Shown: positions 34,632 through 55,166, numbered from the stretch's first letter. The stretch is 64,000 nucleotides of DNA from an uncultured Bacteroidales bacterium (GCA_964606845.1 CAZSIC010000004.1:205-64204), one strand, 5' to 3'. Notes: a model not told the origin generated them from the sequence alone. Translations and numbers: made by a program.

Positions 34632-34633
34632 AA

Positions 34634-36492: not shown

Positions 36493-36751
36493 TTAATTTT
36501 TTACCACTCAAATATTTAGCTAATGTTAATGTGCCAATAAAACTTAAAATAATCCATGCAATACCAATATCCAGAATAAAAGATTTCTGAGTAGTGATAG
36601 ATAAAATGGCACATATTCCAACCACCAGAATACCAAATATATCTATTCCAACCATTCTGTCGGCAATTGACGGACCGCGTATTATTCTGTACAGGCAGAA
36701 TATACATAATACAATTTGCACATATAGCAGTATGTTTAAATAATTAATCAT
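36485..36751 (-). CDS. Mrp/Mnh subunit F-like (MbhB-like)
   Basis: 88 aa, three hydrophobic segments. Overlaps both neighbours. Confidence 0.7.
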   Translation of the reverse strand: MINYLNILLYVQIVLCIFCLYRIIRGPSIADRMVGIDIFGILVVGICAILSITTQKSFILDIGIAWIILSFIGTLTLAKYLSGKKLNE

Positions 36752-37364: not shown

Positions 37365-37366
37365 AA

Positions 37367-38901: not shown

Positions 38902-39240
38902 TTATCCTCTTAATTGATTAATTTCTCTAATATCAAACGTTTTATATTTTCTGTAAAGCCTTATGGCTATGGCAAGCAGCATGGCTGTAGTTGCCAGCCC
39001 GATAACAATTGCTGTAAGCACCATAGCTTGTGGCAACGGGTCTACATAAACCTGATTTGATAGTGATAAGTCAACTATTGGAGCAACTCCAGCATCGATA
39101 TAGCCTATTAATACAAGGAATAGAAAAACGCTAAACTCCATAATCGATAGTGATATCACTATTTTTATCAGATTTCTGCGGGTTATAAGTCCATACAATC
39201 CAACCAGAAATAATAAAAAACATAATATAAATACAATCAT
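38902..39240 (-). CDS. MrpC / NuoK-like subunit (MbhG-like)
   Basis: 112 aa, three TM segments. Confidence 0.75.
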   Translation of the reverse strand: MIVFILCFLLFLVGLYGLITRRNLIKIVISLSIMEFSVFLFLVLIGYIDAGVAPIVDLSLSNQVYVDPLPQAMVLTAIVIGLATTAMLLAIAIRLYRKYKTFDIREINQLRG

Positions 39241-39674
39241 TTTTTTGTCTCTTCTTTAAATATGATTAATGCCAGAAATATTGTTATTATCGCTGCTGCT
39301 ACTTCAATGCCTATAAAAATATTATATAATGGAATGGCACCGGCGCTGATAATTTCGCCCAGTTGGCCTTTGGGTAAATAGTTTGCAAAAAATATTTTAA
39401 CTCCAATAAACAGTGCTAAAATGGCAAGCATTAAAACAATAAATATGGCTAAACTTTCTATAAGCGATGAGCCTTTTTCTTTACTTCTGAGATTTACAGC
39501 ATCGGATCCAAATGCCAAAATGAGTAAAATATATGCTCCTGCAATGATTGCTCCCCCGGCAAAACCACCTCCGGGAGTAAGATGCCCGTGGGTAATAATA
39601 TATATGCCGTACATAAAAATTATTCCGGAAATTAATTGCGTTACTTTCTTTACTATAATTGACATTCCTTTCAT
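39237..39674 (-). CDS. MrpB-like subunit (MbhF-like)
   Basis: 145 aa. HLTPGGGFAGG motif typical of MnhB. Confidence 0.75.
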   Translation of the reverse strand: MKGMSIIVKKVTQLISGIIFMYGIYIITHGHLTPGGGFAGGAIIAGAYILLILAFGSDAVNLRSKEKGSSLIESLAIFIVLMLAILALFIGVKIFFANYLPKGQLGEIISAGAIPLYNIFIGIEVAAAIITIFLALIIFKEETKK

Positions 39675-39679
39675 AAAAT

Positions 39680-40207
39680 TTACTTTTTAGCTTTAATTCT
39701 TAGTATTGTTAATACTCCTAAAGCAGCAGCAAATAAAATAGTTGCTTCGCCAAGGGTATCATAGCCTCTGAAATCGAATAATACACCTGTTACCAGGTTG
39801 GCACTTCCAGTTTTTTCTGCAGCCCCGTTTACATACGTTTCAGCCATGCGCAATGTATGCTCGCCAAAGAGATTTAAGTCGGCAGTTGCTTGTACAAAGA
39901 AAAAGAGCAGAACCGCAGCAAAAATGATCGATAATGTAATGTTGCTAAACGATTTGTAATCATTTTTAACTTTTAGTTCTTCTCTGGTGCTATCTAATAC
40001 TACCGCCACCATTATAATCAGAGTAACTGTTTCAATTACAATTTGAACAATGGCAAGATCGGGTGCTCTTAGCAATAAAAATGCTATTACAAGGCTGTAA
40101 CCTACTATTCCTGCAGTAATTACCGCCGAGAGTAAATCTTTGGCATGGATGGCAAAGATTGCACCAATGATCATAAATCCTATTAATATTGAAAGCGTTA
40201 ATTCCAT
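39680..40207 (-). CDS. MbhD/MbhE-like (MrpA C-terminal part) membrane subunit
   Basis: 175 aa, polytopic. The C-terminal VTGVLFDFRGYDTLGE motif is typical of this family. Confidence 0.7.
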   Translation of the reverse strand: MELTLSILIGFMIIGAIFAIHAKDLLSAVITAGIVGYSLVIAFLLLRAPDLAIVQIVIETVTLIIMVAVVLDSTREELKVKNDYKSFSNITLSIIFAAVLLFFFVQATADLNLFGEHTLRMAETYVNGAAEKTGSANLVTGVLFDFRGYDTLGEATILFAAALGVLTILRIKAKK

Positions 40208-40217: not shown

Positions 40218-42080
40218 TTAAGTCATTATAAGTAACATAATTATTATTCCTGCAAATACCCAAATGGCATAATTGCTTAAAACACCATTGTGGGTTGTGC
40301 TAAATAAGTGGCTAAACCATAAAACAATGCGTTTCGACAAATCATAAATGTCGAACCATTTTTCTTCAGCTTTTTGATATAAATATTTAAATAGTTTAAA
40401 TTCTCCTATAGTTTTGTAAAACTCAACAGCATTGTAATCTCCTGACTCTCTCATTTTTTCGCCACCACCCACAAAACTGTCTTCTGTCCTGAATTTTTTA
40501 ATATTCCCGATAAAGTAGATGATAATACCCAAGACAATGGATAGCAGGATTAACAGAGAAACCGTTTCTGATTGCCATATTCCCACAAAACTAAATTCTC
40601 CGGTAATTGGGTAAAATAATTTTGGGATAACATAACCTGTGGCAAAAATACCAAATGCAACACAGAAAAGAGCCAGAATAACCAGTGGTATCCACATTAA
40701 GGGTGAAACTTCTTTAATATTTTTAAACGCTTCTTTTTTGCGTCCCAGGAATATTCCACCAATAAATTTGATAAAACTGGCCAGTGTTAGTGCCGAACCT
40801 AAAATAGCCAAACCAAGCCAAACAATCCATAAGCTATTGGCAACTCCGGTTCCGGTTCCAAAATCAATAATTCCCTGGTATATCATCCATTTCGATGCAA
40901 ATCCGTTTAATGGCGGTATTCCCGAAATAGATAAAGCAAATATTAAAGCTGCGATGAAAGTAATTGGCATCGCTTTTGAAAGCCCGCCTACTTCTTCAAT
41001 ATTATTTTTACCTGTTCTGTGTTCAACAGACCCGGCTGAAAGTAATAGCCCGCTTTTATATAATGCGTGATTAATCATATGAAATAATCCGGCTGCAATT
41101 CCGATCATTGTTCCAAGGCCAAAGCCAACAACCATATATCCTACCTGCGAAACAGCATGGAAACCCAGCAGTTTTTTATAATCGTGTTGTATCAAGGCCA
41201 TCATAACTGCAGTGATAATGGTAATAACTCCCAGTGCCAATAAAACAACTCTTAGCCAGTCGTTTAAGACAAACAGATAATTGCAAATCCTGGCAAGGAA
41301 ATAGATGCCAAGCAATTTATCTAACGATGCAGGCAACAAAGCACTTGATGATGCCGGTGCGCTTTTGGCATATTCGGGAATCCATGAATGGAAAGGGAAT
41401 GCGCCGGCTTTTGTAAAACTTCCAATCAGTAACGCAAAAAAAGCAGTTATCGTTAACGGGCTTGATGTTGCAAGCATGATGTCGCTCATATTCAATGTTC
41501 CGGTTATTTTCCAGAGAATTCCAATTCCCAATATCATAATACCATCAGAAGCTCCAACAATAATTAAAGTCTTTTTTGCTGCGGCAGAGCTTTCTTCATC
41601 GTGGCCTTTGATTAATTTGTAAAGGGTTAATCCCAATACTCCCCAGAAGGTAAGAAATAACAGCAAATTATCAGATGCTGCAGCACCGTATGAACATCCT
41701 AGTGTAATTAAAAAATATTCGTAGTAATTGCTTATTTTTTTCTCTTTTGATATATAAATAATCGAATATAATAAGATCAAAAATCCGAAAATGCTGATAA
41801 ATAATATGATCAACTGATTGAGCGAGTCGATATTTAATGCACTGTATTTGATCAGATCAAAATTAATGCTTCTTAAAAATATTGATTCAGCTTGATTTAA
41901 GAATGTGTATGGTGTTAAAGCAAACTGTTCAGCCACGAAAATGATAGATGAATAGAAAAGTGTAATAAGAGAGACAATAATAGCAAGTATACCTTTGGCA
42001 ATATTCAATTTTTTTGGAATGATGAATAATGCTAATCCAACAATAATAGGAATGATGATAATGTATAATACTTCGTTCAT
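40218..42080 (-). CDS. Antiporter-like subunit (MrpA N-terminal / NuoL family)
   Basis: 620 aa, polytopic (SWIPEYA, HMINHALYK motifs). Confidence 0.85.
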   Translation of the reverse strand: MNEVLYIIIIPIIVGLALFIIPKKLNIAKGILAIIVSLITLFYSSIIFVAEQFALTPYTFLNQAESIFLRSINFDLIKYSALNIDSLNQLIILFISIFGFLILLYSIIYISKEKKISNYYEYFLITLGCSYGAAASDNLLLFLTFWGVLGLTLYKLIKGHDEESSAAAKKTLIIVGASDGIMILGIGILWKITGTLNMSDIMLATSSPLTITAFFALLIGSFTKAGAFPFHSWIPEYAKSAPASSSALLPASLDKLLGIYFLARICNYLFVLNDWLRVVLLALGVITIITAVMMALIQHDYKKLLGFHAVSQVGYMVVGFGLGTMIGIAAGLFHMINHALYKSGLLLSAGSVEHRTGKNNIEEVGGLSKAMPITFIAALIFALSISGIPPLNGFASKWMIYQGIIDFGTGTGVANSLWIVWLGLAILGSALTLASFIKFIGGIFLGRKKEAFKNIKEVSPLMWIPLVILALFCVAFGIFATGYVIPKLFYPITGEFSFVGIWQSETVSLLILLSIVLGIIIYFIGNIKKFRTEDSFVGGGEKMRESGDYNAVEFYKTIGEFKLFKYLYQKAEEKWFDIYDLSKRIVLWFSHLFSTTHNGVLSNYAIWVFAGIIIMLLIMT

Positions 42081-42089: not shown

Positions 42090-43280
42090 TTATTTATTTT
42101 TTAATTCTTCTGTTTTATTTGCCGATAAAGCAATTAATTCATTTCCGTTTAAAATTTTTTCTCCGGTTTTATTGTCATAAGCCACAGCCATTCGTTCTGT
42201 ACAACAATAACATGGATCTACCGCCGCCAAAGAAATGGTTGCATCAGAAATGGTTTGTCCGATACATGATTTTTTAAATGTTGCAATATTAGTGTAGCTT
42301 GGTGCCCGGATTTTATGTCGTGCCGGTGAATTTGTCCCGTCCGATAAAACATAATGAAATACTTCTCCGCGTGGTGCTTCGGCGTGACCGGTGCCCCATC
42401 CTGCAGGAATTTCTTTTACTTTAACTTCTGTTTCGCCTTCTTTCTCTTTTTTTAATCCTTCAAGGCACTGTTCAATAATTGAAATAGATTCGTACATTTC
42501 CAGTAACCTTACTTCGGCTTTAGCAAAAACATCTCCTTTTTCGGCAGTTATTACTTTCCAGTTAACCAGTGGATAAGCAGCATATGGGTCATCTTTCCTG
42601 ACATCAATGGCAATACCCGATGCACGGGCTGTAGGGCCAACTGCTGCATAATCTATAATGTCTTGTTTGGTTAAAATTCCTACGCCCTTGGTACGGGCAT
42701 GAATTACCGGGTCGTCCATAACTGCACCGGTTAGTAAATCGGTTTTCTTTTTAAGCAAGCTAAGGACTTTTTGTATTTCATCTATTTTATAATTTTCTAT
42801 ATCCCTTCTAACACCACCCACTTTAAACATAGCATAGCTGTTTCTGTTTCCCGAAATCATTTCAAATAAATCCAGGATAGGTTCACGATATTTCCAGGCC
42901 CACATAAATACAGTGTTATATCCTAAAAAGTGGCCTGCAAGCCCAACCCATAATAAATGACTGTGTATTCGTTCCATCTCTCCAATAATAGACCTGATAT
43001 ATTTTGCACGGTCAGGAATTTCTACACCAACAATTTCTTCTACAGCATTAGCAAAAGCAAATGGGTGGGAAGTTGAGCAAATGCCGCAAATTCGTTCTAC
43101 CAGGAAGAAGGACTGATCGTATGTTTTTTTCTCACTCAGTTGTTCAATTCCCCTGTGATTATAACCTGTTTCCCATTTAATATCTTTTACAATTTCTCCT
43201 TCGCAATACAACTTAAACAGTTCAGGTTCTTCCTGTAGCGGATGATAAGGCCCAATTGGTATGAGTGTTTTTTTAACCAT
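42090..43280 (-). CDS. Group 4 [NiFe]-hydrogenase large subunit (NuoD/MbhL/EchE-like)
   Basis: N-terminal RICGICSTSH and C-terminal DPCYCCTER Ni-Fe ligand motifs. About 32-aa C-terminal tail after the Arg, suitable for HycI processing. Confidence 0.92.
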   Translation of the reverse strand: MVKKTLIPIGPYHPLQEEPELFKLYCEGEIVKDIKWETGYNHRGIEQLSEKKTYDQSFFLVERICGICSTSHPFAFANAVEEIVGVEIPDRAKYIRSIIGEMERIHSHLLWVGLAGHFLGYNTVFMWAWKYREPILDLFEMISGNRNSYAMFKVGGVRRDIENYKIDEIQKVLSLLKKKTDLLTGAVMDDPVIHARTKGVGILTKQDIIDYAAVGPTARASGIAIDVRKDDPYAAYPLVNWKVITAEKGDVFAKAEVRLLEMYESISIIEQCLEGLKKEKEGETEVKVKEIPAGWGTGHAEAPRGEVFHYVLSDGTNSPARHKIRAPSYTNIATFKKSCIGQTISDATISLAAVDPCYCCTERMAVAYDNKTGEKILNGNELIALSANKTEELKNK

Positions 43281-43301: not shown

Positions 43302-43739
43302 CTATTTAAATTCTCTTCGGTACGGATATACTCCTTCTGCCCAGTTTCCTTCTGATATTAACTTTTCGGGTTCAGGATGATTCAGAAAAACAATTCCATA
43401 AAGCTCGTGCATTTCTCTTTCAATCCAGTTGGCTCCCGACATCATATTGGCCAGTGAATCTATCTCTGGTTTTTCAACTGGCAGAATAACATGTAAATTC
43501 ACAATTAATCCGATATTATCATTGCTAAAATGATATAGAATCTCAAATCCTTTTTTGGTATGATTTGCCGTAGCAATGATAAACCTTATGTCGAGTTCTT
43601 TAAAAGCATATTCTGCTATTCGTAAAAGAGAACCTGGCTTGATGGAAATAATAGCTCGTGTTTCCGATTTTTTAAAAACATCGAGAACATCAGAACCAAA
43701 TTTTTGCTGAATATTTTTTAAAATCTCATCCGTATTCAT
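43302..43739 (-). CDS. NuoC/MbhK-like subunit
   Basis: 145 aa. ANWIEREMHELYGI motif. Confidence 0.85.
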   Translation of the reverse strand: MNTDEILKNIQQKFGSDVLDVFKKSETRAIISIKPGSLLRIAEYAFKELDIRFIIATANHTKKGFEILYHFSNDNIGLIVNLHVILPVEKPEIDSLANMMSGANWIEREMHELYGIVFLNHPEPEKLISEGNWAEGVYPYRREFK

Positions 43740-43750: not shown

Positions 43751-44161
43751 TTACTTATTTAATAATTTAACAATGCCGGCTAAAATAGCTTCAGGTTTTG
43801 GCGGACATCCCGGTATATAAGCATCTACCGGAATAATTTTATCTACCGGGCCGGCAAATGTGTTTCCTTCGGCAAATATTCCACCGGTACACCCACAAGC
43901 GCCTATGGCAACAACTAAAATTGGTTTGGGCGCTTGTTCGTATAGTTCCAGTAATCTGCTTTTATCTCTTTGGTTTATTGATCCATTTACCAGCAAAACA
44001 TCCGCATGTCTGATACTTCCTACCAGTAACATTCCAAATCGTTCTACATCGTAGCGCGGAGTTAAACAATCGAGTATCTCAATATCACAATTATTACACG
44101 ATGCTCCGCCAAAATGGAACAACCACAAAGATTTTTTAAAACAGAACTCTTTAAAACCCAC
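43751..44161 (-). CDS. NuoB/MbhJ-like [4Fe-4S] small subunit
   Basis: GGASCNNC, GACGCTGG and PGCPP motifs. GTG start. Confidence 0.88.
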   Translation of the reverse strand: MGFKEFCFKKSLWLFHFGGASCNNCDIEILDCLTPRYDVERFGMLLVGSIRHADVLLVNGSINQRDKSRLLELYEQAPKPILVVAIGACGCTGGIFAEGNTFAGPVDKIIPVDAYIPGCPPKPEAILAGIVKLLNK

Positions 44162-44173: not shown

Positions 44174-45106
44174 TTAATAACCAAAATATGTTAACACAAT
44201 TGCTATTATTGCTAATAAGTTCATCCATACAATAAAAAACCTTACGGCTTGTTTTATTTTTACTCTTGGATTTGTGTTTCTTATAAGCGTTAGCAATAGC
44301 ACTACAAATAATATTTTTAAAACAGACCAGAGAATATTAATTCCTTCAAAGTTTAATCCCCCCCATAACAATCCGATTAAAAATGCAGGGAGAATAAAGA
44401 ACATAATATATTTTGCCAGTTTTATTGTTGCGTAAGGTGTTCCGGAATACTCAATCATTATCCCGTGCGCAATTTCTGTTTCTGCTTCGGGCTGATCGAA
44501 AGGAACAAGAGCCAGTTTTGCCTGTATACAAAATATTGTTACGATAAATAGGATTACGCCTGATATACTGCCTGCAAAAGCTCCGTTAATTTTTTGTGCT
44601 GTTATTATTTTATCAAAACTGATATGCATTCCGGATTTATAAATGATAGCTGCTATTACAAGAAGAAATGTTAGTTCGTAACTGAGAATCAATTTCATTT
44701 CTCTCGATCCGCCAACCGCAGCCAAAGGGTTACCGGATGCCAGGGCTCCGATAATATAGGTTAGCGAAGGAATGGTAAGCAAATAAAAAATAACAATAAT
44801 ATCGCCTTGAAAACCAGTCTCAATACCTAATAATGGCAAAAGAATAAATACACCTGCAATGGAAGCACCAAAAACTGCAAAAACAGGAGCTGCCAAGAAA
44901 ACACCTTTTGCTCCATGTTTTGGCAAAATGGTTTCTTTTACCAGTAACAGTTTAAAAAAATCGTAAAAGGGTTGTAATGGTGGCGGCCCTTTTCTGAATT
45001 GTACCCATGCAGTAACTTTTCGGTCGTACCACGACAAAAAAGCGCCAACTACTGCTGCAAAGAGTAGCCCCGGATATATAAAAAAATAAAATAATTGTTC
45101 TGCCAT
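44174..45106 (-). CDS. NuoH/MbhM-like membrane subunit
   Basis: 310 aa, polytopic. FDQPEAETEI motif. Confidence 0.85.
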   Translation of the reverse strand: MAEQLFYFFIYPGLLFAAVVGAFLSWYDRKVTAWVQFRKGPPPLQPFYDFFKLLLVKETILPKHGAKGVFLAAPVFAVFGASIAGVFILLPLLGIETGFQGDIIVIFYLLTIPSLTYIIGALASGNPLAAVGGSREMKLILSYELTFLLVIAAIIYKSGMHISFDKIITAQKINGAFAGSISGVILFIVTIFCIQAKLALVPFDQPEAETEIAHGIMIEYSGTPYATIKLAKYIMFFILPAFLIGLLWGGLNFEGINILWSVLKILFVVLLLTLIRNTNPRVKIKQAVRFFIVWMNLLAIIAIVLTYFGY

Positions 45107-45116: not shown

Positions 45117-45614
45117 TTACTGCTTATCAGTATTCCAAATGCGTTCTTTTATTAATACTTTATCGTTTAATTTATAAATATGCTCTTCAGGTTTTTCGTC
45201 ATGTTCAACAACTGTTATCGCTCCTTCAGGGCATGCTTTTATATATTCATTTAGTTCATGTTCGTCCGATAAATCAAAATACAATTCTTTATCTCTTTTA
45301 TGTTTGAAAAAATCGGTCATCATGGTTCCGAAAGGGCAAATAGTAACACACGATTTGCACGAGATGCATAAATTATTGTATCGGATAATAATTCCGTCCA
45401 TATCTTTTTCCAATGCTTCAGCCGGGCACACATTAATACAGGGAGCTTCTTCGCAACGCCTGCATGTAAATTGAAATACAGCAAGTTCCCGTATGGTTTT
45501 TAATCCAACCGTATTAAACGGAACAGGGAAATATCCTTCTGGTGGCGTAACATCACAACTTTTATCGTTGTACGCTCTGAACTTACTTAAATCGATTAAT
45601 ATTTTTCTTCCCAT
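45117..45614 (-). CDS. 2x[4Fe-4S] ferredoxin-like protein
   Basis: CRRCEEAPCINVCP and CISCKSCVTICP. The ATG at 45614 is 1 nt after the upstream stop. The longer ORF to 45683 would overlap that gene. Confidence 0.75.
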   Translation of the reverse strand: MGRKILIDLSKFRAYNDKSCDVTPPEGYFPVPFNTVGLKTIRELAVFQFTCRRCEEAPCINVCPAEALEKDMDGIIIRYNNLCISCKSCVTICPFGTMMTDFFKHKRDKELYFDLSDEHELNEYIKACPEGAITVVEHDEKPEEHIYKLNDKVLIKERIWNTDKQ

Positions 45615-45615
45615 A

Positions 45616-46440
45616 TTAATTCCAGATATCTGGTTGATCTTTAATTTCATCATATGTAAATACCGGCCCGTCTTTACAAACAAAGTATTTACCCATCATG
45701 CAATGTCCGCATTTTCCTAATCCGCACGACATATTTTTTTCCATCGATAAATAAATATCATGCTCGGGATATCCCATTTCCAGTAATTTATAAGTTCCGA
45801 ATTTCATCATTACAGGTGGGCCGCAAACAACGGCTACAGAGTTTTTAATATCAACTTTTACTTTATCTAAAAGAACAGTTGCTACTCCAACCGACTCTTC
45901 CCATGATTCATCCGGCTGGTCTACTGTCCTTAAAACTTCGAATTTTGGCGTGTTTTTTAGTTCATCAACATATGGTTTATAAATGCACTCATCAGGAGTT
46001 TTTGAGCCATAACAAAGCGTAACTTTTCTTAGTTTGTCAGAAATAGCCATTAAGTTATATAGTAACGAACGAATCGGTGCAAAACCGCAACCGCCTCCAA
46101 GTACCAAAACTTCTTTATCGTGAAATTTTTCTACCGGATAACCTCGTCCGAAAGGACCTCGAATACCCAAAATCTCTCCGGCTTTCATGTTATGAAGATA
46201 TTCGGTGACATATCCGGTTTTCATTACCGTAACTTCAATTTTTTTTGTTTCAAGTGGTGATGAAGAAGGAGTAAATGGTGCCTCGCCAATTCCGTCGACG
46301 GTAAGCTCAATAAATTCGCCGGTTTTAAACGAAAATTCTTGTTCAGGTTCTAAAACAAATGTTTTTATTGTTGGAGATTCAGAAATAACCTCCAGCAGTT
46401 TTGCCTTTATGGGCTTGTATATGTTCGTTTTATCCGACAT
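45616..46440 (-). CDS. FAD/NAD(P)H-binding [2Fe-2S] oxidoreductase (AsrB / sulfhydrogenase gamma-like)
   Basis: RGPFG, LGGGCGFAPIRS, and the C-terminal CGLGKCGHCMMGKYFVC motif. Confidence 0.85.
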   Translation of the reverse strand: MSDKTNIYKPIKAKLLEVISESPTIKTFVLEPEQEFSFKTGEFIELTVDGIGEAPFTPSSSPLETKKIEVTVMKTGYVTEYLHNMKAGEILGIRGPFGRGYPVEKFHDKEVLVLGGGCGFAPIRSLLYNLMAISDKLRKVTLCYGSKTPDECIYKPYVDELKNTPKFEVLRTVDQPDESWEESVGVATVLLDKVKVDIKNSVAVVCGPPVMMKFGTYKLLEMGYPEHDIYLSMEKNMSCGLGKCGHCMMGKYFVCKDGPVFTYDEIKDQPDIWN

Positions 46441-46442
46441 AA

Positions 46443-47444
46443 TTATTGCGCTAATTCTCTGAATAATTCATTTTTATTGATTTTGCCGATACATGCTTCT
46501 ATGCATCTTCCACAACCTGTACATGCAATAGAATCGAACTTATAAGGTTTCCAGTAATATTTGCATAAATACCTGTTTTTAAATCTTTTGGCTAAAGCAT
46601 GCAATGGGTCTTCATCGCCGGCAACTCTTTCAAATCCCGGATATTGGCATGCATCTAACTGACGTATTTTTTCAAATCCAGGATTATCAACCAGCAAAAA
46701 GCATGAGCATGTTGGGCAAATGGTTGCACAAGCTCCGCATGATACGCAGGTTGATGAATATTTGTGCCAAATTTCATCTTTTGATTCTTTAATTAGTTCT
46801 CCGGTTTTTTTGTAATCAGGCAAGCCTTTGTTGTTTCCTAATAATTGATTTTCTATCTTCTTTTCTTTGAGCTCAATTTCTTCAATTTCTATTTGTGGAG
46901 ATTTTGAAAGTGTTGCATATTTTTTGACAGCGTTAATTAATTCTTCTCCCTTTTTTGTAAATACTTTTAAATGAATTTTATTGTCAACCTCGGCCAATGA
47001 AATATCGCAAACAGATTCCGGATAAGGTTTTACTCCATAGCTTGTACAATGGCAATGTTCCTGAACAGAAAAGCATGAACTGCCGATTAAAATTGTATTT
47101 TCTCTTTTTGATAAATAGGAAGGATCAGTAAAATCTTTATCGATATATATTTCGTCAAGTATTTGTAAACCCTTTAAATCACAATTTGGAATTCCCATTA
47201 TAATTCTGGATGTTTTTAATTTGTAGTCTTTGGTAACATTCTCTTTTATAGGAAGAAAAAAGGTTTTTAACGGGGTTGTTGGTTTTGGAATATTATAAAT
47301 AGCTTCAGTAATATTTTCTGAATCTATGAGTTCATAATCAATAATATCATCAATACGCAAGGGTGCGTAGATAGCATAACTGTGCAAAAGATTTTCTATT
47401 GCATGATTCCATTCTGAAGTAAAAACCGAATAGAAATTTTCCAT
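46443..47444 (-). CDS. 4Fe-4S protein (AsrA / sulfhydrogenase beta-like)
   Basis: CVSCGACATICPTCSC and CTGCGRCIEAC. 333 aa. First gene of the operon. Confidence 0.82.
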   Translation of the reverse strand: MENFYSVFTSEWNHAIENLLHSYAIYAPLRIDDIIDYELIDSENITEAIYNIPKPTTPLKTFFLPIKENVTKDYKLKTSRIIMGIPNCDLKGLQILDEIYIDKDFTDPSYLSKRENTILIGSSCFSVQEHCHCTSYGVKPYPESVCDISLAEVDNKIHLKVFTKKGEELINAVKKYATLSKSPQIEIEEIELKEKKIENQLLGNNKGLPDYKKTGELIKESKDEIWHKYSSTCVSCGACATICPTCSCFLLVDNPGFEKIRQLDACQYPGFERVAGDEDPLHALAKRFKNRYLCKYYWKPYKFDSIACTGCGRCIEACIGKINKNELFRELAQ

Positions 47445-47447
47445 ATC

Positions 47448-47463
47448 TGTGATTTAATTCACA
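47448..47463. promoter_or_regulatory. Rex-type operator TGTGAT-TTAA-TTCACA
   Basis: Perfect TGTGA-N6-TCACA inverted repeat 4 nt upstream of the operon's first start codon. Confidence 0.55.
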
Positions 47464-47633
47464 TATAAATTTAGAGAAAAATATAGGCCAATGTCAAGTA
47501 TTATTATAATATATGTTGTATAACATATCTATAAAATTTATTAAATAATTAATATACAGGAAATTAATATATTAATTTTTTTATTAAAAAAAATTGCATA
47601 AATTACAAAAAATGTTATATATAAATATTTTAT

Positions 47634-47649
47634 TGTGAAACAAGTAACA
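47634..47649. promoter_or_regulatory. Rex-type operator TGTGAA-ACAA-GTAACA at the rex start
   Basis: Hybrid half-sites TGTGA-N6-TAACA overlapping the GTG start of rex. Confidence 0.4.
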
Positions 47650-48276
47650 AAATATGTTATAAAAAACAATTTAAAGCGTTTGTTTACTTACAGAATTTGT
47701 TTGATCAATTTTAAACGCAAAGGTTTTGACCGTGTTTTTTCTTATAATTTAGGCGAAGAAGCCGGAGTTACAGCTGAACAGGTACGTAAAGATTTTTCAG
47801 AATTTAATATCAGAGGTAATAAGAAAGGAGGGTATAGCATTGATGAATTATTACATGCCATAGATAATATTTTTAAGTTTCAACGTAACGAGCATGTAAT
47901 TCTTATTGGTATGGGAAATATTGGACGTGCCTTGGTGCAGTATAAACGGTTTATATTAAGAAAGATGATTATTGTAGCCAGTTTTGATATTGATCCTTCA
48001 AAACAATCTAAAAGATGGGGAATCCCTGTTCTCTCCTTAGACCAGATGGATGATATTATCCATAAATTTCATGTTCGAACCGCAATTATTGCAGTACCGG
48101 AAATTTCAGCTCAGGAAATTTGTGATAAAATGGTAAAATCGGGAATTAAAGGTATTTTAAATTTTGCACCCATTATACCTAAAGTGCCTGAAGATGTGGT
48201 AGTAAATAATATTAACCTTTGTGATGAACTCGAAAGTGTTATCTATTATGTTGATAAACAAGAGAAAAGTTTGTAA
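47635..48276 (+). CDS. rex: Redox-sensing transcriptional repressor Rex
   Basis: N-terminal winged-helix region (RL.TYR..L). GMGNIGRAL Rossmann NADH site. 213 aa. GTG start. Confidence 0.85.
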   Translation: MKQVTKYVIKNNLKRLFTYRICLINFKRKGFDRVFSYNLGEEAGVTAEQVRKDFSEFNIRGNKKGGYSIDELLHAIDNIFKFQRNEHVILIGMGNIGRALVQYKRFILRKMIIVASFDIDPSKQSKRWGIPVLSLDQMDDIIHKFHVRTAIIAVPEISAQEICDKMVKSGIKGILNFAPIIPKVPEDVVVNNINLCDELESVIYYVDKQEKSL

Positions 48277-48332: not shown

Positions 48333-50564
48333 TTGGTTCAAGGTGTTGGATTTCGCCCGTTTGTTTACCGGTTGGCTAAAAAATACCAGCTTAACGGGAA
48401 CGTGGCCAATCGTAGCGATGGCATAGTTGTAAAGATTCATGGTGATGCACAGATTATTGAAAAATTTAAGCACGATATCGTTAAGTATGCACCGCCGGCA
48501 GCATTGATAAAACAGATAAAATCTGTTCTTTTAGAAGACTCCTCTTTTTCTGACTTTGAAATTTTGCCCAGCCAAAAAAATGATTCATTGTATACTGATA
48601 TTAGTCCGGATATTGCTGTTTGTGACGATTGTTTGGCTGACCTTAAAAATCAAAAGCATCGGATTAATTATCCATTAATTAATTGTACCAATTGTGGCCC
48701 GAGATTTTCGATCATCAAAGAATTACCATACGACAGGACAAATACTACCATGAAACAATTTGAGATGTGCCCTGTTTGTCATTATGAATACCACGATATT
48801 AATGACAGGCGCTTCCATGCTCAACCTGTTGCCTGTAATTACTGTGGCCCAAAATATGAATATATCATTGGTGATACAATTCAAAGCGGCCTCTCTATCA
48901 TATTAAATCAAATTGCAACTCAGCTAAATAATGAAAATGTTATTATTATTAAAGGAGTTGGTGGTTATAATTTTATTTGCGATGCTAATAACAACAAGTC
49001 GGTTAAGCGTATCAGAACGATAAAAAACCGCGAGTCTAAACCTTTTGCGGTAATGTTTAAGGATACAGATACTGTAAAACATTATTGTCATTTGTCTGCT
49101 CGTGAAAAAAAGATACTGGAATCATGGCAACGACCGATTGTTATTCTCGGGCAAAAGAAGCAATTGTGTTCTTCAATTAATCATAATTTGGACAAAATTG
49201 GCGCTATATTGCCTTATTTACCTTTGCATTATATGTTGTTTGATTATCTTACAACATCTGTTATAGTTTTTACCAGTACCAATAAGTCAGAAGAACCACT
49301 GGTGGCAAATGATCAAAAAATAAAAGACGATTTTAAAAAACTTTCTGACGGTGTACTTATGCATAACCGTGAAATTTTTAATCCTGTTGACGATTCAGTA
49401 GTAAAAGTAGGAAAAAAGGTGAGTCAGATTATCCGACGGTCAAGAGGATATGTTCCAACTCCTGTTGAGTTAAATTCAAATGTTGATGGAATATTTGCTG
49501 CAGGGGCTGAACAAAAAAATACTTTTTGCATAGGTAAAGATAATAACGGAATACTTAGCCAGCATATTGGCGATTTAACGAATTATGAAACTTTCCAGTT
49601 TTATATTAATACTGTTGAAAAATTTTTTGATTTATATCATTTTAAACCCACCATTTTGGTTTGTGACCAACATCCGGCTTATTTATCTACCAAATTTACA
49701 GATGAATTTGCGCGGTTATATCTACTCGATAAAAGGAATATTATTAGAGTACAACATCATCATGCTCATATTGCCTCGTGTCTGGCTGAGCATCATATCA
49801 ATAAAAAAGTAATTGGTGTTAGTTTTGACGGGACAGGTTATGGTACTGATGGCAATATTTGGGGTGGTGAATTTTTAATTTGTGATACCAAATCTTTTCA
49901 ACGATTTGCACATTTCGATTACGTGAAGATGCCTGGCGGCGATGCTGCTGCAAAAGAACCCTGGAGAATGGTTATGGCATATTTTCAAAAATATTTTGGG
50001 GATATGAAGGAATGTGAAAGTATGAAATGTTTTGAAAATGTTGAACCGGAATCTGTTGCTCTGCTGAGAAATATGATTAAAAAAAATATTAATTCACCAC
50101 TAACATCCAGTGCAGGCCGTTTATTCGATGCTGTTGCATGTTTGCTTAATCTTTGCAGCCACAACTCTTTTGATGCTGAAGCTCCAATGCGGCTGGAGTC
50201 TGTTATCGATCAATCGATTACTGGCTCATATCCTTATCAAATTTTTAATGATAGGGTGATATTTGACAGAACTATCGAGGCAATTATTTCTGATATTAAT
50301 AAAATGCAAGTATCTGTTATATCTGCAAAATTTCATAATACAATTGTAAATGTTATTGTTGATTTGTCTGAAGTCATTAGAAAAGAAACAGGAATTAAAG
50401 AGGTTGTTCTTTCGGGAGGTGTTTTTCAAAATAATTACTTATTGGAAAAGTCTGTTGAGAAATTAAAGAATGAAAAGTTTACTGTTTTTTATAACCAAAA
50501 GGCTCCTGCCAACGATGGAGGAATTTCTCTGGGTCAATTATATGTTGCATCAAATAATTTATAG
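48333..50564 (+). CDS. hypF: Carbamoyltransferase HypF
   Basis: Acylphosphatase VQGVGFRP. Four CxxC zinc-finger pairs. YrdC-like and Kae1-like domains. The frame is open back to 48288 without a canonical start. Confidence 0.9.
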   Translation: MVQGVGFRPFVYRLAKKYQLNGNVANRSDGIVVKIHGDAQIIEKFKHDIVKYAPPAALIKQIKSVLLEDSSFSDFEILPSQKNDSLYTDISPDIAVCDDCLADLKNQKHRINYPLINCTNCGPRFSIIKELPYDRTNTTMKQFEMCPVCHYEYHDINDRRFHAQPVACNYCGPKYEYIIGDTIQSGLSIILNQIATQLNNENVIIIKGVGGYNFICDANNNKSVKRIRTIKNRESKPFAVMFKDTDTVKHYCHLSAREKKILESWQRPIVILGQKKQLCSSINHNLDKIGAILPYLPLHYMLFDYLTTSVIVFTSTNKSEEPLVANDQKIKDDFKKLSDGVLMHNREIFNPVDDSVVKVGKKVSQIIRRSRGYVPTPVELNSNVDGIFAAGAEQKNTFCIGKDNNGILSQHIGDLTNYETFQFYINTVEKFFDLYHFKPTILVCDQHPAYLSTKFTDEFARLYLLDKRNIIRVQHHHAHIASCLAEHHINKKVIGVSFDGTGYGTDGNIWGGEFLICDTKSFQRFAHFDYVKMPGGDAAAKEPWRMVMAYFQKYFGDMKECESMKCFENVEPESVALLRNMIKKNINSPLTSSAGRLFDAVACLLNLCSHNSFDAEAPMRLESVIDQSITGSYPYQIFNDRVIFDRTIEAIISDINKMQVSVISAKFHNTIVNVIVDLSEVIRKETGIKEVVLSGGVFQNNYLLEKSVEKLKNEKFTVFYNQKAPANDGGISLGQLYVASNNL

Positions 50565-50566
50565 TT

Positions 50567-50785
50567 ATGTGTTTAAGTATACCAGGTAAAATAATATCGA
50601 TCAATGATGATATGGCAGATGTTTCAATCGGCGGTGCCATTGTAAAGGTTGGAATTCAAATGATCGATAATATTCGTAAAGGCGATTATGTATTGGTACA
50701 TGCCGGTTTTGCCTTACAAAAGATAGATGAGAAAGAGGCTTTAGAAACGCTGCAATTATTAAAAGAAATGAATGATTTTAAATAG
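50567..50785 (+). CDS. hypC: Hydrogenase assembly chaperone HypC
   Basis: MCLSIPG N-terminus. 72 aa. Confidence 0.92.
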   Translation: MCLSIPGKIISINDDMADVSIGGAIVKVGIQMIDNIRKGDYVLVHAGFALQKIDEKEALETLQLLKEMNDFK

Positions 50786-50788
50786 TTT

Positions 50789-51874
50789 ATGAAATACATT
50801 GATGAATATAGGGACATTGCACTGGTTAAGAAATTATCTGCAAAAATCAGGCAGTTTAATAAACATGAAATTTCTTTAATGGAGGTTTGTGGAGGGCATA
50901 CCATGGCTATTCATCGTTTTGGAATTACTGCATTATTGCCTGAAAACATAAAGTTAATCTCAGGCCCGGGTTGCCCTGTATGTGTTTCAAGTATTTCATT
51001 TATTGATCGTGCCATTGCATATTCAAAATTACAGGATGTAATTATTACAACATATGGCGATTTAGTTCGCGTTCCCGGATCGAAAAGCAGTTTGGAAAAA
51101 GAAAAATCAATGGGCGCTGACATTCGTATCGTTTATTCGTCGCTGGACGCATTAAAAGTTGCCAAAAACAATCCAAATAAAAAGATTATTTTTTTGGGAA
51201 TAGGTTTCGAAACAACGGCTCCATCATCAGCCGTTGTAATTCAAAAAGCTTATAATGAAAATGTGCAGAATTTTTTTCTTTTAAGTGCACATAAAATCAT
51301 GCCACCGGTTATGGAGGCTTTGTTAAACGACGAAGTTAAAATCGATGGGTTTATTTGCCCAGGGCATGTAAGCACTATTTCCGGCTCAAAAATTTATGAT
51401 TTTATTGCTGAAAAATATAAAATAGGATGTGTTGTTGCAGGTTTCGAACCAACAGATATATTACAATCCATTCAAATGTTAACGAAACAAATAGAATCAA
51501 ATGAGCCAAAGGTTGATATTCAGTATTCAAGAGCAGTTACAATACAGGGAAATGTTAAAGCTCAGCAATTGATAACAGAGGTTTTTGAGCTTAAAGATGA
51601 TTATTGGCGAGGGATTGGGAAAATACCTAAAAGTGGATTGAAGCTGAAAGATAAATATAAAAATTTTGATGCTGAATATCATTTTAATTTAAGTATTGAT
51701 TATGTAGGGGAGAATCCATCGTGTATTTGTGGTATTATTTTGAGGGGATTAAAAACACCAAAGGATTGTAAATTATTTGGAAAAGTTTGTACACCGCAAA
51801 ACCCTGTTGGTGCTTGCATGGTTTCTAACGAAGGTTCATGTCATGCATATTATAAATATCGAACGTATGAGTGA
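50789..51874 (+). CDS. hypD: Hydrogenase formation protein HypD
   Basis: CGGHT, GPGCPVCV and GFETT motifs. Confidence 0.92.
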   Translation: MKYIDEYRDIALVKKLSAKIRQFNKHEISLMEVCGGHTMAIHRFGITALLPENIKLISGPGCPVCVSSISFIDRAIAYSKLQDVIITTYGDLVRVPGSKSSLEKEKSMGADIRIVYSSLDALKVAKNNPNKKIIFLGIGFETTAPSSAVVIQKAYNENVQNFFLLSAHKIMPPVMEALLNDEVKIDGFICPGHVSTISGSKIYDFIAEKYKIGCVVAGFEPTDILQSIQMLTKQIESNEPKVDIQYSRAVTIQGNVKAQQLITEVFELKDDYWRGIGKIPKSGLKLKDKYKNFDAEYHFNLSIDYVGENPSCICGIILRGLKTPKDCKLFGKVCTPQNPVGACMVSNEGSCHAYYKYRTYE

Positions 51875-52877
51875 TTTTATTACATTAAATCATGGAAGTG
51901 GCGGAAAAGCTTCCAGCGACCTTATACAGGAGGTTTTTATTAAATCTTTTGGACAGGTTGATAATATTTTAGCTGATTCGGCTATTTTGAATATTCCCAA
52001 AAATCAAATTGCTTTTACAACCGATTCTTTTGTTGTAGATCCCATTTTTTTTCCTGGGGGCGATATAGGTAAACTTGCCATTTGTGGTACCGTTAATGAT
52101 TTGGCAGTATCTGGTGCAATTCCTAAGTATATTTCCATATCATTTATTCTCGAGGAGGGTTTTTTTATCAAGGATTTGAAAGAAATTGCTAATTCGATTG
52201 CGCAACAGGCTGAAAAGTCAAACGTAAAAATTGTTACTGGCGATACCAAAGTTGTGCATAAAGGAAAATGTGATAAAATTTTCATCAATACCACAGGAAT
52301 AGGAATTTTTAATAGCGATTTAGCTTATATAAGCAATGGCCAAAAAATAAAAGCGGGAGATAAAATTATTATCAATGGGGCTTTGGGCGATCACTCCATC
52401 GCGGTTTTAGGAGCTCGGAATGAAATAGAGTTTAACGTTGATGTTAAATCGGATTGCGCATGTTTAAATCATTTAATTGCTGATATTATAAATAAAAATG
52501 TGGAAGTGAAATTTATGAGAGATATTACCAGAGGCGGATTAGCAACAATTCTAAATGAACTGGTAAGAATTACAGACTTTGGTATAGAGATTAATGAAAA
52601 AGATATACCAATAAACGAATCAGTTATGGGATTATGTGAAATTCTTGGTTTTGATCCTTTATATCTGGCAAATGAGGGAAAAGTCTTATTGGTGGTTGAT
52701 CCTAAAGATGCCGAGAAAACGATCAATAGTATGCAGAGAAATACCTTAGGTAAGGAGAGTGTTGTAATTGGTGAAGTGGTGAATGATCATCAGAGAATGG
52801 TGGTTGGAAAAACTGAGGTGGGAGGAAAACGGATCATAGATATTTTGCAGGGGGAACAATTACCGAGAATTTGCTAG
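51867..52877 (+). CDS. hypE: Hydrogenase maturation protein HypE
   Basis: ATG at 51867 gives an ATGAGTGA overlap with the hypD stop. AIR-synthase-like fold. C-terminal PRIC. Confidence 0.9.
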   Translation: MSDFITLNHGSGGKASSDLIQEVFIKSFGQVDNILADSAILNIPKNQIAFTTDSFVVDPIFFPGGDIGKLAICGTVNDLAVSGAIPKYISISFILEEGFFIKDLKEIANSIAQQAEKSNVKIVTGDTKVVHKGKCDKIFINTTGIGIFNSDLAYISNGQKIKAGDKIIINGALGDHSIAVLGARNEIEFNVDVKSDCACLNHLIADIINKNVEVKFMRDITRGGLATILNELVRITDFGIEINEKDIPINESVMGLCEILGFDPLYLANEGKVLLVVDPKDAEKTINSMQRNTLGKESVVIGEVVNDHQRMVVGKTEVGGKRIIDILQGEQLPRIC

Positions 52878-52890
52878 GAGAAATTTATTC

Positions 52891-52944
52891 GAAACCATGC
52901 CTACGGCAGGGAAACTTGGAATCTGAAATTTGAAATTTGAAAAA
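52891..52944. repeat. Copy of the gaaaccatgcct..ggcagg..aaacttg..tgaaatttgaaatttgaaa unit
   Basis: Matches 53452-53516 apart from an internal duplication in the second copy. Confidence 0.55.
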
Positions 52945-53289
52945 ATGCATGAACTGAAAATAGCCTCTGAGATGGTTGGAATAATAGAAAATGTTGCTGA
53001 AAAAGAGCATTTAATTTCAGTAACAGTAGTAAATATTCAGTTTGGGAAAATGATACAAATTGTTCCGGATATTTTTCAGTTTGCTTTCGAAGAAGCAACC
53101 CGGAATACTATTGCAGAAGGAGCAAAACTGAATTTGGAAATTTTACCGGTCAAATTTGCTTGTAAAAAATGCAATCTAAATACAGAGGTTAGCGATTTGG
53201 TATTTATTTGTCCGAACTGTGGATCTGTAGATTTGGATTTGATTCAGGGACGAGAAACAATAATTGAAAGTATCGAAGGGGAGAAGTAA
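52945..53289 (+). CDS. hypA: Nickel insertion protein HypA
   Basis: MHE N-terminus. CKKC...CPNC zinc site. Confidence 0.9.
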   Translation: MHELKIASEMVGIIENVAEKEHLISVTVVNIQFGKMIQIVPDIFQFAFEEATRNTIAEGAKLNLEILPVKFACKKCNLNTEVSDLVFICPNCGSVDLDLIQGRETIIESIEGEK

Positions 53290-53525
53290 AAGGCAGAACT
53301 CCTTCGCTTGGTAACCGCTAAAGCTTATAGCGAACGCGTTAAAGCGTCGGAGATCAAAGTAGGCAGATCTCCTTCGCTGAAGCTTCGGAGATCAAAGGAG
53401 TCTGTTGTGCAGAGGTCTTAAATTTGATAAAAGGCCTTCGATTTGAAATTTGAAACCATGCCTGGGGCAGGTAAGCCATCCCTTCGGCAGGTAAACTTGT
53501 AATTTGAAATTTGAAACCTGAAATA
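53290..53525. repeat. Repeat-dense, G+C-richer spacer between hypA and hypB
   Basis: Direct repeats ggcaga(a/t)ctccttcgct x2 and cggagatcaaag x2. The ggagatc/gatctcc complements allow alternative hairpins. A CCTNSGGCAGGKAARC unit occurs twice, and tttgaaatttgaaa occurs twice. Confidence 0.6.
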
Positions 53526-53532
53526 AATAACT

Positions 53533-54186
53533 ATGGAAATTAAAATCCGCAAAAATGTTCTTGATCGAAATCAGAACAAAGCCAATGAAGTAAGAGAGCT
53601 ACTTCGCCAAAAAAAAGTGTTAATGGTTAATATCATTAGTTCGCCCGGTGCCGGAAAAACTTCACTACTTGAGCGTACCCTCGAGAATTTAAAAGGAAAA
53701 TTCCGAATTGGAGTTATCGAAGGCGATATTACTACAGATCGTGATGCACAAAGGTTAAAAATTCACGATATTCCCATTGTGGTTATTAATACCGAAGGAA
53801 GCTGCCATCTCGATTCGCACAGTATATCTAAAGTTTTACCCGAATTTTATCTCGACCATTTGGATGTATTGTTTGTCGAAAATGTAGGAAATTTAGTTTG
53901 CCCTTCCCATTTTGATCTGGGCGAAACCTTTAAGCTTGCTGTAGTAAGCACCACCGAGGGCGATGATAAACCTGAAAAATATCCCATGTTGTTTAGGGAG
54001 GCAAAAGCTGTTTTGTTAAATAAAGTTGATTTAATCGAATATACCGATTTTAATAAATCAGCTTTTAAAGCCGATTTGCAGAAAATTAAAGGAAATGTGC
54101 CATTATTTGAAATTTCCTGCACTCGAAATATTGGATTAGAATCATGGTATAAATGGGTTTCTGACCAAATAAAATATGTTATATAA
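53533..54186 (+). CDS. hypB: Hydrogenase nickel incorporation GTPase HypB
   Basis: P-loop SSPGAGKTS. ENVGNLVCP motif. NKVD. Confidence 0.92.
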   Translation: MEIKIRKNVLDRNQNKANEVRELLRQKKVLMVNIISSPGAGKTSLLERTLENLKGKFRIGVIEGDITTDRDAQRLKIHDIPIVVINTEGSCHLDSHSISKVLPEFYLDHLDVLFVENVGNLVCPSHFDLGETFKLAVVSTTEGDDKPEKYPMLFREAKAVLLNKVDLIEYTDFNKSAFKADLQKIKGNVPLFEISCTRNIGLESWYKWVSDQIKYVI

Positions 54187-54298: not shown

Positions 54299-54325
54299 GT
54301 GTGAAAAAAATAACAAATAATTTTT

Positions 54326-55164: not shown

Positions 55165-55166
55165 AA

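Follow-up and report, generated by a model that had tools for sequence, protein, structure and literature searches.

Where does a membrane-bound [NiFe]-hydrogenase obtain its electrons when the genes that open its operon resemble those of a soluble sulfhydrogenase? This question is raised by a stretch of 64,000 nucleotides (nt) from an uncultured Bacteroidales bacterium (GCA_964606845.1, CAZSIC010000004.1:205-64204), the whole of which is called the window here. Between positions 45,117 and 47,444, three genes on its minus strand, hunA, hunB, and hunC, directly precede the genes of an Mrp-linked group 4 [NiFe]-hydrogenase. A preliminary description had linked these three genes to NAD(P)H and knew of no characterized example of such a design. 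Judged by gene order and signature motifs, the operon is the Hun operon hunA-P, a member of a family that has already been named and to which a Bacteroidales carrier is newly added. With modest confidence, we read hunABC as the candidate NAD(P)H electron-input module of a 16-subunit Hun complex with a Mrp-like ion-translocating arm.

The hunABC genes and the hydrogenase operon that they open

The preliminary description had given gaps of 1-10 nt among the first three genes and up to a NuoH-like gene, and the open reading frames (ORFs) agree: the gaps are 2 nt between hunA and hunB, 1 nt between hunB and hunC, and 10 nt between hunC and the NuoH-like hunD. According to its ORF and to Pfam, NCBIfam, and PDB comparisons, hunA (46443..47444, minus strand) encodes a 333-amino-acid (aa) iron-sulfur (Fe-S) protein homologous to sulfhydrogenase beta and AsrA. 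Over its full length it matched Pfam Fer4_22 as well as the NCBIfam models ShyB, HydB, and AsrA; the match to the beta subunit of Pyrococcus furiosus sulfhydrogenase I (SHI; 9nez_B) spanned residues 17-323 (E=2e-30). All 16 cysteines that are invariant in the alignment of HunA homologs align with cysteines of SHI beta. The second gene, hunB (45616..46440, minus strand; Pfam and PDB), encodes a 274-aa flavoprotein homologous to sulfhydrogenase gamma and AsrB, with sites for flavin adenine dinucleotide (FAD), NAD(P), and [2Fe-2S]. Its Pfam domains are FAD_binding_6, NAD_binding_1, and DHODB_Fe-S_bind (the PyrK-type 2Fe-2S domain), and it matched SHI gamma (9nez_C) over the full length (E=2e-48). 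The third gene, hunC (45117..45614, minus strand; Pfam, NCBIfam, and PDB), encodes a 2x[4Fe-4S] connector ferredoxin of the HycB/CooF/HydN type, with PDB matches that include HycB3/HycB4 of the hydrogen-dependent CO2 reductase and HycB of Escherichia coli formate hydrogenlyase (FHL). The longest hunC ORF (45117-45683) starts at a TTG at 45683 and would give 188 aa; the ATG at 45614 gives 165 aa, the same length as the gene calls in relatives. The motifs singled out in the preliminary description, CVSCGACATICPTCSC and CTGCGRCIEAC in the 333-aa protein and RGPFG, GGGCGFAP, and CGLGKCGHC..C in the 274-aa protein, are all present in the translations, and its family assignments (AsrA/beta-like, AsrB/gamma-like, and, for the 165-aa product, a 2x[4Fe-4S] protein, by family and PDB matches a HycB/CooF-type ferredoxin) were retained.

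The cofactor motifs of HunB are conserved. Fourteen homologs of the 333-aa HunA were aligned, and the alignment was used to scan one genome per species, which yielded 80 hun loci. Across phyla, RGP[YFL]G was kept in 80/80 HunB orthologs and GGGxGxAP in 77/80, and the 2Fe-2S cysteine pattern C-x4-C-x2-C...C was found in at least 78/80.

In the window, 19 co-directional, closely packed genes opened by hunABC run from 47444 down to 33918. The hydrogenase core (all on the minus strand) consists of hunD (44174..45106), encoding a NuoH/MbhM-like membrane subunit of 310 aa (Pfam NADHdh, E=1e-61); hunE (43751..44161), encoding a NuoB-like small subunit of 136 aa (Pfam Oxidored_q6; NCBIfam NF005012, 137 bits, over the cut-off of 116); hunF (43302..43739), encoding a NuoC-like subunit of 145 aa (Pfam Complex1_30kDa); and hunG (42090..43280), encoding the [NiFe] large subunit of 396 aa (Pfam Complex1_49kDa and NiFeSe_Hases). 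HunG carries the Ni-Fe motifs RICGICSTSH (L1) and DPCYCCTER (L2), followed by a 33-aa C-terminal extension after CTER. Its best PDB match was P. furiosus MbhL (6cfw_L, E=4e-84) and the next was E. coli HycE (3e-77), while it scored only 39 and 30 bits against the group 3 ShyA and HydA models. An extra cysteine stands in the L2 motif, which reads CYCC instead of CxxC; CYCC was kept in 63/67 large-subunit orthologs (the L1/L2 motifs overall in 63-64/67) and the extra cysteine was absent from the next-closest group 4 representatives.

The Mrp-like arm follows, likewise on the minus strand. It begins with hunH (40218..42080), encoding an MrpA-N/MbhH/NuoL-like antiporter subunit of 620 aa (Pfam Proton_antipo_M, E=2e-59), hunI (39680..40207), a fused MbhD+MbhE-like subunit corresponding to the C-terminal part of MrpA (Pfam MbhD, MbhE), hunJ (39237..39674), which is MnhB/MrpB-like (Pfam MnhB), and hunK (38902..39240), which is MrpC/NuoK-like (Pfam Oxidored_q2). 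A second antiporter subunit of 510 aa, MrpD-like, is encoded by hunL (37367..38899; Pfam Proton_antipo_M, E=6e-68), and the arm ends with the MrpE-like hunM (36748..37233; Pfam MNHE), the MrpF-like hunN (36485..36751; Pfam MrpF_PhaF), and the MrpG-like hunO (36157..36492; Pfam PhaG_MnhG_YufB). A non-coding gap of 133 nt between hunL and hunM (37234-37366, minus strand) interrupts the otherwise close packing; it holds an inverted repeat, GATGCA...TGCATC, without a T-run, which might be an element of RNA processing or translational coupling.

The last of the 16 genes, hunP (35497..36111, minus strand; PDB and NCBIfam), encodes a NuoI/HycF-like 2x[4Fe-4S] subunit of 204 aa that ends in a C-terminal CxxC...CxxC extension. 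E. coli HycF (7z0s_F, E=3e-19) was its best PDB match, ahead of MbhN (7.5e-12), and the FHL iron-sulfur subunit was its top NCBIfam match. A HycI-type maturation endopeptidase for the large subunit follows (35054..35500, minus strand; Pfam HycI; NCBIfam TIGR00072, 87 bits vs. a cut-off of 47), and the [NiFe] maturation genes hypF, hypC, hypD, hypE, hypA, and hypB lie nearby on the plus strand (48333..54186; Pfam families on the identical contig L001, and ORFs). The cluster therefore has the composition of a group 4 energy-converting hydrogenase: a NuoD/HycE/MbhL-type large subunit with two CxxC Ni-Fe motifs; a NuoB-like small subunit; NuoC-, NuoI-, NuoH-, and antiporter-like subunits; and, for maturation, the C-terminal extension, the HycI protease, and the adjacent hypFCDEAB genes. 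Group 3 alpha and delta subunits were not found in the cluster, its small subunit being of the NuoB type and its large subunit group 4-like. Since HunG keeps the four Ni-Fe cysteines and is accompanied by a maturation protease, it is predicted to belong to a true hydrogenase and not to a sulfane reductase of the Mbs/Mbx type. In this respect the anatomy given in the preliminary description, a beta/gamma-type module and a ferredoxin that share an operon with a group 4 [NiFe]-hydrogenase of the Mrp-linked kind, was recovered in full.

Its supposed novelty was not, because the architecture is already in print. Glass et al. (2021; bioRxiv 10.1101/536078) named and predicted a 16-subunit "Hun" hydrogenase-Na+/H+ antiporter supercomplex with AsrA/AsrB-like HunAB, no AsrC, and Mrp-like modules, in which HunG belongs to HydDB group 4g and carries CGIC-CYCC motifs; their hosts were Atribacteria, Firmicutes, Omnitrophica, Elusimicrobia, and Bacteroidetes metagenome-assembled genomes (MAGs) and Kosmotoga isolates. 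The design was also noted by Bird (2019), by Matheus Carnevali et al. (2019; PMC6349859), who described in Saganbacteria an "enigmatic" cluster of group 4 that combines cooF, asrA, and asrB with Mrp subunits, and in a 2026 in-silico study (PMC13582414). In the MAG of Candidatus Tenebribacter mawsonii, Williams et al. (2021) annotated the hydrogenase as ferredoxin-dependent and as "Group 4g linked to Mrp"; the same MAG is the source of our locus L062, which has a large subunit 74% identical to that of the window. The window has the 16 genes in the hunA-P order (AsrA-like, AsrB-like, ferredoxin, NuoH/B/C/D, Mrp-like, and NuoI-like), CGIC in L1 and CYCC in L2 of HunG, and AsrAB-like HunAB with AsrC absent. 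We assign the operon to Hun because the gene order, the collinearity with Kosmotoga olearia, and the CGIC/CYCC signature all match. Compared with the Hun of Glass et al. (2021), the same genes, order, HunG motifs, and Mrp-like module were found, with no structural difference; what the window adds is a divergent rex gene, adjacent hyp genes, and neighboring HydABC clusters. Some published Hun variants have a molybdopterin protein between hunB and hunC, whereas the window does not.

Conservation, transcription, and predicted Rex operators

The 80 loci represent at least six phyla: about 69 belonged to Bacteroidota, and the others to Cloacimonadota, Aerophobetes, Latescibacterota, Neomarinimicrobiota, Actinomycetota, and unclassified bacteria. 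The preliminary description had suggested searching genomes for co-occurrence of AsrA/AsrB-like genes with group 4 genes; the gene order proved to be the same in 80/80 loci as far as each contig extends, and all twelve genes hunA-hunL were collinear in 53/54 loci with at least 9 kb downstream. The arrangement is not due to chance. In K. olearia TBF 19.5.1 (CP001634.1), all 16 hun genes together with hycI and hypF were collinear with the window at 31-58% identity. When the large subunit was compared with 1.84 billion cluster representatives, only two close full-length clusters were found, both at 59% identity, the rest being at 47% or less; one of the two is the Kosmotoga large subunit (representative P0121), which shares the CYCC motif.

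Several loci differ in detail. About 24 Bacteroidales loci have an extra gene of about 150 aa between hunB and hunC, which the window lacks (L010, L013, L015, L020, L021, L025, L027-L030, L036, L037, L039, L042, L048, L049, L051-L053, L055, L060, L069, and L072). Judged by eye, its product resembles a domain that binds cyclic nucleotides (Crp effector) and lacks a helix-turn-helix; within the complex it might act as a regulatory subunit or as an allosteric sensor. One Bacteroidales MAG (L054) has an insertion of about 5.3 kb between hunD and hunE, which may be a mobile element or a misassembly. In K. olearia (L083), the region of hunH-hunI-hunJ was originally annotated as a single pseudogene, Kole_0567; our gene calls gave three intact ORFs there (599, 178, and 152 aa), matching hunH, hunI, and hunJ of the window.

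Transcription data exist for K. olearia. RNA sequencing delimited one unit, Kole_0568-0575, consisting of a small upstream ORF and hunA-G, and a second with hunK-P, hycI, and hyp genes (PMC5674127 supplement). Since the first unit covers hunA-G, it crosses the junction between hunC and hunD in this organism. In the window, terminator-like sites numbered 8 against 9.0 expected, and none lay at the hunC/hunD junction. The oxidation of pyruvate by pyruvate:ferredoxin oxidoreductase should give reduced ferredoxin and no NADH. On pyruvate, the hun genes of K. olearia reached only about 30-200 reads per kilobase per million (RPKM), compared with about 1900-2600 for the Fe-only hydrogenase (PMC5674127 supplement). 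With no NADH expected, this low expression fits repression by Rex, and it argues weakly against oxidation of ferredoxin as the main role.

Divergently from hunA, the window encodes a redox-sensing repressor Rex of 213 aa (47635..48276, plus strand), which scored 210 bits against NCBIfam NF003996 (cut-off 138). Rex repressors leave the DNA when the ratio of NADH to NAD+ rises. We searched for operators with a consensus of the TTGTGAAnnnnTTCACAA type. A Rex-operator-like palindrome with three mismatches, ATGTGAATTAAATCACAG (47447..47464; consensus scan and phylogenetic footprinting), follows a -10-like hexamer and ends 2 nt ahead of the start codon of hunA. A second such site with two mismatches, TTGTGAAACAAGTAACAA (47633..47650), overlaps the start codon of rex and points to probable autoregulation. 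By count alone these sites were not significant, as 4 sites with at most three mismatches were found in the window against 9.8 expected by chance, and phylogenetic footprinting was used instead. It covered 75 orthologous upstream regions. A Rex-like box with at most two mismatches was present in 46/75 of them, against a background of 0.012 such boxes per 256 nt. At up to three mismatches, a box lay within 40 nt of hunA in 45/75 loci and a distal one, about 180-190 nt upstream of hunA, in 46/75. Loci from other phyla had boxes with only zero or one mismatch directly at hunA; that of K. olearia, TTGTGAATTTTATCACAA, has one mismatch and lies 14 nt upstream. In addition, rex was divergent within 600 nt of hunA in 47/69 loci with enough upstream sequence. 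Because the boxes recur across orthologous upstream regions and across phyla, Rex control, through operators predicted from sequence, is a conserved trait of Hun operons. It was recognized here for the operon of the window and was not reported by Glass et al. (2021). The preliminary description had taken a Rex box upstream as fitting an NADH-linked role. The box at 47447-47464 is there and is conserved in relatives; that NADH is the direct substrate does not follow from it, as a ferredoxin-dependent counterexample discussed below makes clear.

The electron donor of HunABC

On the reading that we favor, NAD(P)H would reduce the FAD of HunB, and the electrons would pass through the [2Fe-2S] cluster of HunB to the Fe-S clusters of HunA. 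From there they would cross the two [4Fe-4S] clusters of the HycB-like HunC and the two clusters of the HycF-like HunP, and then the cluster of the NuoB-like HunE, to reach the [NiFe] site of HunG, where protons would be reduced to H2; the path might also be reversed. Standard potentials make the step from NAD(P)H to H2 an uphill one, so that it is presumably coupled to the movement of ions through HunD and the Mrp-like subunits. In one direction the complex would draw on the Na+/H+ gradient to vent surplus NADH in the form of H2; in the other, the reduction of NAD(P)+ by H2 would conserve energy. Rex would hold the operon off until the ratio of NADH to NAD+ rises, and derepression under that condition would favor the venting direction.

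The conservation of the FAD and nucleotide motifs across phyla suggests that HunB binds a nicotinamide nucleotide, and this favors the NAD(P)H reading; it would be hard to explain if HunB were only a wire. NAD(P)H is thus the most likely redox partner of HunAB on the evidence of the motifs. The link to NAD(P)H proposed in the preliminary description is still the best-supported reading, given motifs kept in 77-80 of the 80 orthologs and the homology to SHI. As to the donor itself, the assembly of all subunits into a single complex, the nucleotide preference, the direction, the coupling ion, and the stoichiometry, these are what we infer.

Comparison with known systems bears on how such a module might be attached. 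HunA and HunB share the cysteine ligands and the FAD, NAD(P), and 2Fe-2S motifs of P. furiosus SHI (group 3b, 9nez/9nf0). The beta/gamma pair of SHI oxidizes NADPH, whereas the partner of the Hun pair would be a membrane-bound group 4 enzyme; nor is Hun a group 3b enzyme, as HunA and HunB are not equivalogs and group 3 alpha and delta subunits are lacking. With E. coli FHL-1 (7z0s) and the Mrp-linked group 4b enzymes of formate- or CO-respiring Thermococcus, Hun shares the same modular chain, in which a soluble dehydrogenase module is followed by a HycB/CooF-type connector, a HycF-type subunit, and the small and large subunits; group 4b is likewise described as Mrp-linked in HydDB. The input module differs, being a sulfhydrogenase-type flavoprotein/Fe-S pair in Hun and a molybdopterin formate dehydrogenase or carbon monoxide dehydrogenase in the FHL and CO enzymes. 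By analogy, the combination of a HycB-like HunC and a HycF-like HunP is the layout by which E. coli FHL docks its dehydrogenase module. Complex I and Hun both have an NADH-type input, a NuoB/C/D/H/I core, and antiporter-like subunits, with redox-ion coupling. They differ in that NuoEFG is not homologous to the NAD(P)H module of Hun and that the acceptor of complex I is quinone, as against protons at the [NiFe] site. The NADP-dependent Fdh3 of Thermococcus onnurineus was considered as a precedent for the beta/gamma module and was dropped, as its NADP subunit is NfnB/SudA-like and not SHI-gamma-like.

Several points weigh against NAD(P)H as the donor. Making H2 from NAD(P)H costs about 18 kJ/mol under standard conditions, so that the proposal works only with ion flow in reverse or with H2 kept very low. 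In the window, NADH could already be disposed of by two HydABC-type [FeFe]-hydrogenase clusters. HunA and HunB lie under every NCBIfam equivalog cut-off: against the sulfhydrogenase beta and gamma models they scored 145, 123, 177, and 164 bits for cut-offs of 690, 750, 600, and 650, against the AsrA model (TIGR02910) 110 bits for a cut-off of 323, and against the AsrB model (TIGR02911) 202 bits for a cut-off of 289. Their function is therefore not simply transferable from SHI or AsrAB. In HunB the post-beta2 motif reads G[SA][KR]T, similar to those of both the NADH-binding NfnA and the NADPH-binding SHI gamma, so a preference for NADH or NADPH is not readable from it. In the literature on Hun, group 4g, or the Kosmotoga Mbh, we found no assay, purification, or structure, and the donor predicted by Glass et al. 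(2021) and in most genome papers is reduced ferredoxin. Moreover, control by Rex is no guide to the substrate of Hun, since a ferredoxin-dependent hydrogenase, the Ech of Caldicellulosiruptor bescii, is under Rex repression too (PMC6391272).

The last two points belong to the alternative that survives best, although we consider it unlikely: Hun would be a ferredoxin-dependent hydrogenase of the Mbh type, in which reduced ferredoxin is the donor, HunABC only relays electrons, and the evolution of H2 drives the export of Na+/H+. The reaction from ferredoxin to H2 is exergonic enough for ion pumping. The Hun core is most like that of the ferredoxin-dependent P. furiosus enzyme, as the MbhL match (E=4e-84) indicates, and ferredoxin is the published prediction both for Hun (Glass et al. 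2021) and for the "group 4g Mbh linked to Mrp". The P. furiosus membrane-bound hydrogenase (MBH; group 4d, 6cfw), whose large subunit is the closest solved one to HunG, shares with Hun the NuoH-like anchor and the Na+/H+ module, and all MbhA-N families are represented in the operon of the window. Hun nevertheless departs from MBH in having two antiporter-like subunits (HunH and HunL) in place of one, in the presence of HunABC, and in HunP, which is nearer to HycF than to MbhN. In MBH, which has no HunABC, electrons enter straight from ferredoxin at MbhN. A relay role would not account for the retention, in 77-80 of the 80 orthologs, of a complete FAD/NAD(P)-binding flavoprotein, and the rationale that AsrAB takes electrons from ferredoxin clashes with the NAD(P)-binding domain in HunB. 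By the FHL analogy, a HycF-like HunP with a HycB-like connector would leave less room for direct docking of ferredoxin. Finally, K. olearia expresses its hun genes poorly when grown on pyruvate, a substrate from which only reduced ferredoxin is expected.

A confurcating or branched enzyme appears less probable again. NAD(P)H would enter by way of HunAB, and a second, low-potential donor (reduced ferredoxin or, in some variants, the substrate of a formate dehydrogenase (Fdh)-like protein) would enter elsewhere on the same Fe-S chain, so that the stronger reductant would pull the formation of H2 from NAD(P)H, with ion movement optional. This arrangement would solve the thermodynamic problem without spending an ion gradient. 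It agrees with the AlphaFold3 models of group 4 clusters that combine homologs of SHI beta and gamma with an Fdh-like protein (PMC13582414), a study that tied these homologs to NADPH and proposed bifurcation or confurcation, and with the Atribacterial and Saganbacterial variants that have a molybdopterin protein between hunB and hunC. For variants with the Fdh-like insert it is plausible. However, an Fdh-like gene was absent from the window and from all 80 loci, where the only insert between hunB and hunC was the protein of about 150 aa that resembles cyclic nucleotide monophosphate-binding proteins (about 24 loci). Family scans identified no second flavin or known bifurcating site, and HydABC-type hydrogenases are already encoded next door.

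Very improbable, in our view, is an ion-translocating ferredoxin:NAD(P)+ oxidoreductase with a hydrogen valve, similar to Rnf, in which HunAB would be the output to NAD(P)+ for electrons from ferredoxin or H2. In its favor, at high H2 the reduction of NAD(P)+ by H2 releases energy that could sustain the export of ions, reversibility is recorded in HydDB for SHI and other group 3b enzymes, and NAD(P)H modules have been proposed on MBX-type complexes in Desulfurococcaceae. Derepression by Rex at high NADH would nevertheless be the wrong signal for an enzyme that produces NADH, and the neighborhood is fermentative and H2-evolving (HydABC and a HydS-like sensor). Scarcely credible is a sulfur-linked role for HunAB, as a sulfur or polysulfide reductase, a function formerly suggested for sulfhydrogenase beta, or as part of an AsrABC-like sulfite reductase coupled to H2 or NAD(P)H: the homology to AsrA/AsrB and to sulfhydrogenase beta/gamma and the suggestion by Bird et al. 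of sulfur-compound reduction speak for it, but family scans found no AsrC or sirohaem-type gene among the 19 co-directional genes, all of which are accounted for, HunG keeps its four Ni-Fe cysteines and maturation protease, and the AsrA and AsrB equivalog cut-offs were not reached.

NAD(P)H has been raised as a donor before; Bird (2019) suggested "ferredoxin or NADH". The wider proposal, that Hun is a Rex-controlled, reversible, H2-evolving analog of complex I that would link the NAD(P)H pool to H2 by way of an ion gradient, is tentative and in our estimate falls a little short of an even chance. If true, the coupling site of such a complex I analog would be without biochemical precedent, and the ferredoxin assignment of "group 4g Mbh" would be overturned in Bacteroidota, Cloacimonadota, Atribacterota, Thermotogota, and other phyla.

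Neighboring systems and implications

Two further co-directional genes trail the HycI gene, orf135 and orf237 (33918..35041, minus strand; ORFs and homolog placement), and we infer that they belong to the hun operon only from their gaps of 12 nt and 2 nt. The product of orf135 has two CxxC pairs and no family match, and tblastn gave no match between it and the 135-aa ORF upstream of K. olearia hunA. The membrane protein encoded by orf237 contains a His-rich loop (HKHKHVHSDGTVHAHKHSHFNEHSHVHD) and matches DsbD_2 weakly; its homolog adjoins hypF in two loci (L054 and L057), and it may be a nickel transporter.

Beyond the hyp genes lies a second hydrogenase system (54395-62798, plus strand). It includes a homolog of the HydS-like sensory [FeFe]-hydrogenase (55167-56519, plus strand) among regulator genes with DRTGG, HATPase_c, and PHP domains, and a trimeric [FeFe]-hydrogenase of the bifurcating type, with the NuoF-like HydB (58686-60479), HydA (60497-62272), and the NuoE-like HydC (62295-62798), all on the plus strand. 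A weak Rex-like site with three mismatches (54299-54316) stands 79 nt upstream of the first gene of this system. In Labilibacter sediminis (L082; GCA_005877885.1), HydB, HydA, and HydC likewise adjoin hyp and hun genes. A third hydrogenase cluster (20032-23578, plus strand) consists of a 175-aa ORF, a short NuoF-like gene (20590-21753), and a gene for a 596-aa HydA-type [FeFe]-hydrogenase (21788-23578), which brings the 64-kb window to three hydrogenase systems. Farther away (7554-13443, plus strand), a run of genes encodes EtfB, EtfA, a 4Fe-4S protein, a CCG-domain (HdrD-like) protein, and lastly a long acyl-CoA dehydrogenase; the region resembles an acyl-CoA dehydrogenase system that is linked to Etf and may have a membrane or Fe-S partner.

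The architecture of Hun, its name, and the idea of NADH or NADPH as donor are already in print. What is added here is the cross-phylum conservation of predicted Rex operators and a sharper case against an assignment to ferredoxin only. Because the operon occurs in cultured Labilibacter sediminis and K. olearia, the question of the donor is directly testable. Anaerobic Bacteroidales commonly carry Hun-type operons, as do many candidate phyla of sediments, digesters, and the subsurface, and metabolic reconstructions usually enter these operons as ferredoxin-dependent Mbh, an assignment that is questionable in current metabolic models. If NAD(P)H is the donor, these models would misplace a major route of NADH disposal and H2 production as well as the energy bookkeeping, and Hun would be a living example of a NAD(P)H module on an Mbh/Mrp core, bearing on the origin of complex I.

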